From: Eledone cirrhosa
Taxonomy: Eukaryota
Assembly: GCA_964016885.1 (NCBI GenBank)
Contig: OZ024740.1
Location: forward strand, 331,390,001-331,454,000
Length of the DNA stretch: 64,000 nt
Direction: 5' to 3'
This document shows, in pieces, positions 18,761 to 21,455 of this stretch (position 1 is the stretch's first letter; every line of letters starts with the position of its first letter). The position numbers were made by a program, and so were the translations under genes. The notes under the pieces were generated by a model. The model was not told the origin of the DNA and made no database searches. It saw only the letters and a list, made by a program, of their open reading frames with translations.

Positions 18761-20252
18761 TTTAGACAATATATGTGTCTTTACTTGATCTTGTGCCGAA
18801 AGTAGAAACAGACACCCACACACAGACGCCCACACACACACACACATAACTACAAACACATATACACACAAATATACACATTCACACACACACAAATATA
18901 CACACACACATATATATATGTATATATATATATATATATACGTATGTATGTGTGTGTGTGTGTGTGTGTGTGTGTGTGTGTGTGTGTGTGTGTGTGTGTG
19001 TGTGTGTATAAGAATGTATTTTTGTCCCTGGTAATATTAGTACGTTTTATGACCAGAAATAATAATACACCAATCAATATATTTTCCTTTCATTTGCATA
19101 TATATTTTGTATATATTCAAATCGAACATATAATTTTATATCTATATGCAACAAAAATATATTAAGATATTAAATATTCTAGTTTTAATGGTTTCGAGGA
19201 ATCGGGTTGCATACAAAGGATAATGCAATTAGATTCCCAATGATTTCATTGATATGAGACATGCGTAGAATTTTCTGTGAAGTTACTGAAACGTTATTGC
19301 TATTTTGAAGATCTTTCAACAAACAATATCAACATGTCAAAACTGAAAAATGTTTTTTGTCATGAATACCTAAGCCATCATTGGCAGCTAATCAATATGT
19401 AGCGTGGCTTATTTAGCATGAAAACAAGGCAATAATGGAAAATAAATCTGCATAGTAAATTCAAAGAAAAACACTAAATTCTATAATGTTGCGATATTCT
19501 TCGATGAAAATATATTTATACATAAATGTAGAAAGGAAAATGTGGGGATCCCATATTCAAATCAGATTGAGGGAGCTATGTTTAAACTGTTTGGTGATAC
19601 TATCAATCTGTTGATCTTAATTCTTGGGGATAGGTGAAGTGCGTTGAACGCAGGACGTACAGTTCCGGCACAGATATTGCAAACACCGCAATTGACGCTT
19701 AACAAATTCTGCAAAGTACTATAAATAACGACATCTAGAGTTAAAGAAGGCAATTTACACCCAGGAGAAATTTGAACATAGCTGCAACAAAAATCGTGGC
19801 ATCTACTCTGACGCTGTAAACTATGTTGGAATTAGCATTATATTATGTACACACACACACACACACACACACACACACACACACATATATATATATATAT
19901 ATATATATATATATATATATATATATATATATATATATATATATATATATATATATATATAAAAACAAATAACGAAACGAAATTAAATTTCGTTTCGTTT
20001 GTAACTCACTTTTGTATGACTGACGCTTAAACAATTAAGTTAAAAATGTACATCCACATATGTATACTGAAATACTAGTATGCATATAAATACACACACG
20101 TGTACATATGTAGATGTACCGAGTTTTTCACTGGACACTTTACTGTGAGTGTTCAGCTAGTCTGTATGTAAACACACAGACAAACCGGTTTTTAGAGTCA
20201 TACTGGTTTTCGAGGAAACACCTTTCCTCTATTCTCCAGAAAGCCAGACAGG

Positions 20253-20297
20253 AATATTGGACTAGTTTCGATGTTGTTACATCTCATCAGCAATATT
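20253..20297 (-). ncRNA. Type I hammerhead ribozyme (inverted arm)
   Basis: Exact reverse complement of 20707-20751. Confidence 0.9.
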
Positions 20298-20706
20298 TAC
20301 CTATCCTCCGGCCTTTCTAGAGAATCGTAAAAGCACATATCGTTATATGCTTTTTCTATGAAAATTAGTAGTGGGCAGACTACTTTGCATAGAGCGTGAG
20401 TACGTACCGGTTCAGCGGAGACGATAAAAACAAATAACGAAACGAAATTAAATTTCGTTTCGTTTGTAACTCACTTTTGTATGACTGACGCTTAAACAAT
20501 TAAGTTAAAAATGTACATCCACATATGTATACTGAAATACTAGTATGCATATGAATACACACACGTGTACATATGTAGATGTACCGAGTTTTTCACTGGA
20601 CACTTTACTGTGAGTGTTCAGCTAGTCTGTATGTAAACACACAGACAAACCGGTTTTTAGAGTCATACTGGTTTTACGATTCTCTAGAAAGGCCGGAGGA
20701 TAGGTA

Positions 20707-20751
20707 AATATTGCTGATGAGATGTAACAACATCGAAACTAGTCCAATATT
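20707..20751 (+). ncRNA. Type I hammerhead ribozyme
   Basis: aatattg-CTGATGA-gatg-taacaa-catc-GAAA-ctag-TC-caatatt. Predicted cleavage after C20744. Confidence 0.92.
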
Positions 20752-21171
20752 CCTGTCTGGCTTTCTAGAGAATAGAGGAAAGGTGTTTCCTCGAAAACCA
20801 GTATGACTCTAAAAACCGGTTTGTCTGTGTGTTTACATACAGAATAGCTGAACACTCACAGTAAAGTGTCCAGTGAAAAACTCGGTACATCTACATATGT
20901 ACACGTGTGTGTATTCATATGCATACTAGTATTTCAGTATACATATGTGGATGTACATTTTTAACTTAATTGTTTAAGCGTCAGTCATACAAAAGTGAGT
21001 TACAAACGAAACGAAATTTAATTTCGTTTCGTTATTTGTTTTTATCGTCTCCGCTGAACCGGTACGTACTCACGCTCTATGCAAATTAGTCTGCCCACTA
21101 CTAATTTTCATAGAAAAAGCATATAACGATATGTGCTTTTACGATTCTCTAGAAAGGCCGGAGGATAGGTA

Positions 21172-21216
21172 AATATTGCTGATGAGATGTAACAACATCG
21201 AAACTAGTCCAATATT
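21172..21216 (+). ncRNA. Type I hammerhead ribozyme
   Basis: Identical to 20707-20751. Predicted cleavage after C21209. Confidence 0.92.
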
Positions 21217-21455
21217 CCTGTCTGGCTTTCTGGAGAATAGAGGAAAGGTATTTCCTCGAAAACCAGTATGACTCTAAAAACCGGTTTGTCTGTGTGTTTA
21301 CATACAGACTAGCTGAACACTCACAGTAAAGTGTCCAGTGAAAAACTCGGTACATCTACATATGTACACGTGTGTGTATTCATATGCATACTAGTATTTC
21401 AGTATACATATGTGGATGTACATTTTTAACTTAATTGTATATATATATATATATA

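Follow-up and report, generated by a model that had tools for sequence, protein, structure and literature searches.

A 465-nt hammerhead repeat family of Eledone cirrhosa with inverted, two-armed insertions resembling those of Penelope-like elements

The two-armed locus and its ribozymes

The window, which is the whole 64,000-nt stretch of DNA analysed here, contains at 19959-21438 a total of 3.2 copies of a 465-nt unit, and motif scanning and self-comparison resolve them into two inverted arms instead of a plain tandem. The sequence-only reading had described three near-identical tandem copies; the number of about three stands, while the plain tandem order does not, since the arms hold 1.5 and 1.65 units. 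The minus arm runs from 20675 to 19959 (1.5 units) and the plus arm from 20672 to 21438 (1.65 units), the units are head-to-tail inside each arm, and the arms are 99% complementary. Both flanks are (TA)n microsatellites, the left at 19885-19961 with (AC)n before it (19849-19885), and the right, read from the sequence, at 21438-21457. When the unit is numbered from the first base 3' of the predicted ribozyme cut (q1), q1-465 corresponds to the full cut-to-cut unit at 20745-21209 on the plus strand, which is the predicted monomer or circle. In this numbering the minus arm comprises q50-465 followed by q1-301, and the plus arm comprises q393-465, q1-465 and q1-229. Their 5' ends, at q50 and q393, meet at the inversion junction (20672-20675) through four common nucleotides, TTTT. 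The 3' end of the minus arm at 19959 is termed tailed, as this arm alone ends with a tail of q229-301 (19959-20031, minus strand), which contains a 13-bp hairpin at 19971-19999, and the 3' end of the plus arm at 21438 is termed untailed. In the full unit, the conserved start-site region q222-301 is located at 20966-21045 (plus strand) and has three sub-features, in the order of a small hairpin whose loop contains the first start site, a 13-bp hairpin (21005-21033) and a U-rich second start site. Tandem Repeats Finder, run on the window, did not pick up the 465-nt unit.

Three type I hammerheads are found at 20238-20308 (minus), 20696-20766 (plus) and 21161-21231 (plus), with CUGAUGA at 20290, 20714 and 21179 and predicted cuts after 20260, 20744 and 21209, respectively. 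Their motifs are identical, there is one per unit on one strand only, and the two plus-strand cut sites are spaced by 465 nt; the motif scan thus confirms the unit, the three ribozymes and the one-unit spacing claimed earlier. The 7-bp stem I of that reading also holds, and stem II can be drawn with 4 bp and a 6-nt loop or with 5 bp and a 4-nt loop; stem III is replaced by a CUAG palindrome. The Rfam search of the window gave no match at the gathering score. Below it, Hammerhead_HH9 (clan CL00010) is the top model at all three sites (34.2 bits, E 3.4e-6, threshold 52), and its alignment has the stem I bulge and the 6-nt loop II in register. A one-pair stem III with a palindromic tetraloop is also described for the axolotl HHR_Amex1, a ribozyme of dimer-dependent type (PMC7229834). 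In the folding, stem III is absent from the monomer circle, and two ACUAGU stretches are predicted to pair at -6.2 kcal/mol. A ribozyme with a one-pair stem III would be expected to cut efficiently only as a dimer formed via the ACUAGU palindrome, so that multimers would undergo processing and a circle on its own would remain stable.

The fold of the unit is predicted to be very stable. The linear unit has a minimum free energy of -156.6 kcal/mol (z -10.5 against 100 shuffles), and 20745-21209, folded as the circle that the sequence-only reading envisaged, has one of -152.3 (z -12.1 against 40 shuffles); the structure is branched, not rod-like, and includes all the stems named in that reading. 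The claim that the unit is non-coding also proved right, as the longest ATG frame in the unit trimer is 41 aa. The GC content is 36%, an ORF check of the trimer revealed no RT plus GIY-YIG frame, and the unit has no LTR, PBS or PPT, the arm ends lying directly against TA. Among 32 diverse units, the hammerhead core is unbroken in 30, the cut-site triplet is GUU in eight, and 96.8% of the paired cells in the predicted fold are retained. Five pairs are altered on both sides, including a stem II A-U to U-A change (7 copies) and an A-U to G-C change in the stem I extension (6 copies). These compensatory changes are supportive but not strong, because 11 of 500 shuffles also reached five pairs and the copies are related.

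A different hammerhead element, with a long stem II and a UAUGUA loop, adjoins the locus at 21451-21577 (minus) and 22320-22530 (plus), likewise back-to-back, and copies related to it at 74-90% identity are present in many of the fetched loci. A third hammerhead family lies at 5265-5520 of the window (minus, CUGAUGA at 5456), ends in a TA run, and occurs also in L043, L054 and L105.

A young non-coding family

The 46-nt ribozyme has 1,486 exact matches in the 3.0-Gb genome and its reversed control has none, so its occurrence is not due to chance. One insertion end, consisting of the tailed end plus TA, has 1,792 exact matches. A looser ribozyme pattern gave 11,817 matches against 15 for controls, and most of the first 100 belong to the 465-nt family; the pattern for the untailed end yielded 361 usable matches on the forward strand, the reverse strand being over-counted. 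The search with the whole unit gave 259 matches from the 40 scored of 901 candidate places, and the 150 matches listed have 98-100% identity, which together with the exact ribozyme copies bears out the young multi-copy family proposed by the sequence-only reading. For detailed analysis we fetched the 40 best-scoring loci, 24 loci taken by position from the ribozyme list, 30 taken by position from the end list, and two long arrays. The copies fall into subfamilies at about 89, 95, 98 and 99% identity, spanning 89-100%. The start-site region is the best conserved stretch between subfamilies (2.8% and 0.5% versus 10.5% and 6.0%), and both start sites lie in predicted single-stranded U-rich segments.

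Moreover, the genome contains a sister non-coding family of about 418 nt with 64% identity to the unit (L121-L125), one of whose copies, in L125, is inverted and two-armed. The letters in its stems I and II are different, and the pairing, the core, the CUAG loop and both ends are retained. A second ribozyme with the identical CUAG loop had been considered as the pseudo-LTR (pLTR) of a partner element and was rejected when it proved to be this non-coding sister family. L121 also carries an open 1,026-aa Ty3-type pol frame (2435-5515, plus strand) near the start of C1. The loci L143 and L144 present one insertion twice, 17.6 kb apart, which is a segmental duplication. The ribozyme pattern had no match in metagenome contigs and none in viral contigs, collections from which close records may be omitted.

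The repeat resembles the metazoan non-LTR retrozymes in its non-coding tandem units, which are a few hundred bases long and have one type I hammerhead each, in a GC content below 50%, in having no LTR, PBS or PPT, and in its thousands of dispersed copies and co-existing Penelope-like elements (PLEs), as far as the class is described in the main texts of Cervera and de la Pena 2020 (PMC7229834) and of the preprint of Li et al. (10.64898/2026.07.22.740005); it is also reviewed in PMC7761336. The unit had been thought longer than most, which is not supported: the former source gives 150-450 bp for metazoan units and the latter 51-972 bp, and 465 nt is within the known range. Judged from its sequence, the 465-nt repeat appears to be a new, young, non-coding, multi-copy family of tandem type I hammerheads of the non-LTR retrozyme kind. 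Unlike the insertions described in the main texts of these two sources, its copies have inverted arms and fixed tailed and untailed ends in (TA)n. Literature searches of open main texts found no paper on retrozymes of cephalopods or on inverted retrozyme insertions with one tail, although inverted or invertebrate examples may exist in the supplements of the preprint, and the word 'ribozyme' is absent from the available text of a 2026 Octopus repeat annotation (PMC13282606).

Fixed ends and the anatomy of the insertions

The informative part of the locus, which the sequence-only reading did not contain, is the pairing of inverted arms with two fixed 3' ends. In the ribozyme sense, arms end at q301 or at about q227-232, some 70 nt apart, and not at the ribozyme cut. 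One arm at each of the two sites was found in 57 of 57 scorable two-armed loci (25/25, 26/26 and 6/6 by set), L144 being scored once with its duplicate L143. One end had been fixed by the choice of the locus in 14 of the 57, and in the first two sets, the 42 loci that were not chosen by their ends give the one-of-each rule a p of 5e-13 against a coin toss. Five two-armed loci were dropped as unscorable (L040, L073, L089, L090 and L116); the exceptions to the end sites are L040, ending at q346, L090, ending at q114, and a short arm of L080, ending near q398. In addition, several one-armed loci bear a tiny inverted stub of the opposite end type. TA lies directly beyond 132 of 139 arm ends, and independent contigs have loose ends of TA at the same two places (20976 and 21045), with no listed variant over q206-q309.

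The 5' ends behave differently from the fixed 3' ends. They are uniform over the unit (137 arms, KS p 0.62), and four of the 137 lie at the cut, where 2.1 are expected. Within a locus the two 5' points show no relation, falling within 20 nt of each other in 6 of 57 loci (5.0 expected), and the junctions are non-palindromic, which rules out fold-back as the origin of the inversion. A rare variant is common to both arms in 17 of 57 loci, compared with 42 of 3,192 mismatched pairs of arms. Direct duplications of interrupted TA, at least 8 nt and mostly 9-14 nt long, flank 17 of 57 loci versus 288 of 3,192 controls (9%), a support which is modest because some matches take in terminal letters of the element. 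On the basis of the rare variants in common and the flanking duplications, both arms of a locus are read here as products of one event.

An inverted 5'-truncated copy beside a partial tandem, a tail at one end and a (TA)n target are all features of PLE-type insertions, and the fixed tailed and untailed ends in TA thus represent the PLE 'tail' signature. Craig et al. (PMC8557442) describe, in their main text, PLE insertions into (TA)n that form partial tandems with an inverted 5'-truncated copy and often carry a tail of 30-40 bp at one end; the likeness extends to the endonuclease-positive, Neptune-like PLEs with their hammerheads, while the retrozyme differs in having no ORF and a tail of about 70 nt. 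The available text of Arkhipova et al. (PMC3846280) calls the tail optional and puts forward a model of self-priming with an antisense template. In the retrozyme the one-of-each rule holds strictly, where these papers say 'often' or 'optional', and its non-palindromic junctions are against the self-priming model. Furthermore, Frangieh et al. (PMC11167929) report that a lizard PLE, predicted to be a dimer, cuts both strands of AT-rich DNA and extends them in vitro, starting at two internal sites at the borders of the tail, and that the reaction does not require the ribozyme to cut; the two fixed ends of the retrozyme match these two internal start sites. The non-autonomous PLEs of Chlamys such as MRC1 (PMC8557442, main text) are comparable as non-coding PLE dependants with multicopy head-to-tail insertions, but their 3' end resembles that of their autonomous family and their clade has no canonical hammerheads.

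Both arms of the retrozyme, then, end at sites that recur from locus to locus. In L1 twin priming, both target ends prime in one event and the inverted arms are joined by microhomology. The second priming in L1 takes place at a variable position internal to the first site, whereas both sites are fixed in the retrozyme.

Penelope-like elements, circular templates and the course of mobilisation

PLEs are present in the window itself. PLE-A (28897-34640, minus strand) is young, with an intact 1,217-aa frame at 29466-33119, a 5'-truncated copy before it, and hammerhead-like motifs in its 3' UTR near 33330 and 29195; its end lies in a TA run, some 72 nt inside its own ORF. PLE-B (L096-L100 and L130-L139) is very young, its 150 best matches having 98-100% identity, with several frames of more than 1,150 aa and up to 1,281 aa, a minimal hammerhead in the 3' UTR, and an Octopus vulgaris protein as the best named relative (69%), which fits the cephalopod host proposed by the sequence-only reading. 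Pfam gave nothing for either. They were typed by motifs identified by eye (DKS, YVDD, CxxxxCxxC, YIGET and CCHH) and by relatives with RT and GIY-YIG domains, and the clade label Neptune-like is a judgement by comparison with the main text of PMC8557442, not by a tree. Among 15 PLE-B loci, 12 are inverted with two scorable ends, and 11 of the 12 have one short end (ATG plus about 25) and one long end (ATG plus about 85), the exception being L131, in which both ends are long. PLE-B, an active element of this genome, thereby obeys the one-of-each rule seen in the retrozyme. In L049, a single case, a tailed repeat arm is placed 5'-to-5' with an untailed PLE-B arm that is 98-99.5% identical to an intact copy. 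Against naming either family as the partner, the unit has no sequence similarity to PLE-A or PLE-B in pLTR or tail (best E 0.16), unlike the frog retrozyme families described in the preprint text (10.64898/2026.07.22.740005), and the PLE-A and PLE-B tails are A-rich, the retrozyme tail U-rich; in addition, cross-mobilisation between PLE types was not observed according to the available text of PMC3846280. Two other chimeras, L116, in which the repeat is joined to a decayed PLE, and L041, in which it is joined to another hammerhead element with both ends apparently untailed, indicate that chimeras can arise by deletion or chance. L116 and L053 were rejected as evidence for a partner, the one for its decayed PLE and the other as a single occurrence.

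The PLE-like end anatomy would also be expected if the units were the pseudo-LTR ends of a coding PLE, that is, 5'-truncated autonomous copies and not an independent non-coding element. In the frog, 21 of 57 retrozyme families match PLE pLTRs, according to the text of the preprint (10.64898/2026.07.22.740005), and few families have been looked at among the 36,093 PLE candidates of the genome. We nevertheless consider this origin improbable. Pure head-to-tail arrays of up to 31 units occur without a coding spacer, internal units read from q301 on into q302 and never into an ORF, there is no long frame, and the only same-strand junction joining the unit to the 3' end of a PLE (L053) has a single occurrence genome-wide. 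In none of the loci examined was the unit seen to form the UTR of a coding PLE.

Of 137 arms, 123 run through the cut and 60 contain at least two units (counts biased, as the loci were chosen for having the ribozyme), so the templates would have been circles or uncut multimers. In favour of circles, 11 of 48 loci have variants that are seen at no more than two loci and are fixed throughout the units of the locus, the maximum being 18 of 18 over both arms. Unit-specific variants are in register between the arms at L059, which speaks against circles as the full explanation, and not at L033, L039 and L058; the idea that a single RNA molecule gave rise to the two arms in register is unsupported overall. 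The long arrays are mosaics of shared variants, with periods of 2-6 or irregular, which a monomer circle alone cannot explain. The period-5 array of L033 and the period-4 array of L054 had been considered as rolling circles on oligomers; this was dropped, as the arrays of 14-30 units are irregular mosaics, and periodicity is thus not taken as proof of circles. We think it rather more probable than not that circles are made at least sometimes.

The arrays L126+L127+L104 (31 units) and L128 (15 units), which are mosaics of shared variants, have the look of a retrozyme insertion becoming satellite DNA. Such higher-order and mosaic variants would suit a satellite that spreads at the DNA level by unequal crossing-over, circular DNA or fold-back repair and carries the hammerhead along in inactive form. 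For the family as a whole this is very improbable: the ends are polar with respect to the ribozyme sense and fixed at two sites, with one of each in all the scorable loci, the 5' truncation is random, the near-coincidence of 5' points at chance level excludes fold-back, and the core is intact in nearly all diverse copies.

Two runs, of a kind not stated and labelled as other organisms, each contain one closed unit-length contig (495 and 496 nt, the unit plus 30), which is ambiguous because a low-depth collapsed tandem DNA repeat gives the same closure. Avsunviroidae viroids as well as satellite RNAs of viroid-like type are small, highly paired and hammerhead-bearing, with hammerheads in both polarities. 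The 465-nt unit shares the first three properties, but its ribozyme is of type I, on one polarity, and genome-encoded with retrotransposon scars. That it is an endogenised viroid-like replicon copying from RNA to RNA, with the genomic copies as by-products, is hardly credible despite the stable fold, the viroid-range size and the closed contigs, given the one-stranded ribozyme, the branched fold, and the successive genomic subfamilies and sister family in the same genome; the label 'viroid-like' of the earlier reading is not upheld for the same reasons.

The locus is very probably a single non-LTR retrozyme insertion whose two back-to-back arms lie in a TA microsatellite, and the RT and endonuclease of a PLE most likely made it from an RNA copy. 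The mobiliser is likely a Neptune-like PLE targeting (TA)n. In the course we propose, the PLE protein, probably as a dimer, would bind the conserved q222-301 of the ribozyme-sense RNA, cut both strands of (TA)n and use each start site to prime one of the DNA ends, after which microhomology would join the far ends of the two cDNAs. In the template RNA the cut site would be closed, whether as a circle formed by re-ligation or as a multimer left uncut, and the arrays may afterwards also grow and shuffle at the DNA level. The young family PLE-B is the best candidate for the mobiliser, with a chance that falls a little short of even. An autonomous family of the type of another short two-ended element with a U-rich tail, found in TA runs with a partial hammerhead (L041 2720-2790 and the flanks of L121, L123 and L052), could be closer to the true partner.

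The enzyme that moves animal retrozymes has so far been argued from co-occurrence and pLTR likeness. PMC7229834 and the preprint 10.64898/2026.07.22.740005 call the mechanism open in their main texts, the latter reports in vitro cleavage in only one of nine frog retrozyme dimers, and the passage on retrozymes in PMC8969392 says that they may rely on PLEs and no more. The sequence-only reading had likewise named PLEs as the proposed mobilisers, which the insertion anatomy, with its fixed ends and one of each in every scorable two-armed locus, now backs. We regard the insertions as direct genomic evidence that PLEs would have mobilised a retrozyme family; the class is known, and what appears new is unusually direct evidence on its mobilisation. 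The retrozyme insertions themselves bear the PLE signature, in unusually regular form, in an element that is non-coding, numbers thousands of young copies and has intact PLE frames nearby, and they test the origin of PLE inverted repeats and tails. Tentatively, and with less confidence than in PLE-B as the candidate, they may record the PLE reaction itself, in which a dimer would grip a structured RNA, prime the cut ends asymmetrically at the edges of the tail, and roll round a ribozyme-made circle, in trans on an RNA unlike its own ends (PLE-B on the 465-nt retrozyme). If this is true, the mobilising enzyme of an animal retrozyme would be named, and the inverted-plus-tail structure of PLEs would be explained without antisense self-priming. 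For the existing in vitro PLE assay, the results supply candidate enzymes and a defined RNA in which two start sites are predicted. A small RNA under whose direction an enzyme related to telomerase would place tandem DNA in TA repeats also bears on the birth of satellites.

The window also holds remnants of two more Penelope-like families (42429-42854 and 46091-47294, plus strand), a LINE-type RT/AP-endonuclease frame of 861 aa (24143-27147, minus strand; Pfam RVT_1), and a decayed LINE in several frames, L1/Tx1-like by eye (5958-10965, minus strand). Minisatellites of 37 bp and 27 bp are found at 45357-45666, 27242-27563 and 28191-28356. At about 56700-62800 a microsatellite pattern recurs with a period near 2,753 nt (56691, 59443 and 62197), which suggests a local tandem triplication.
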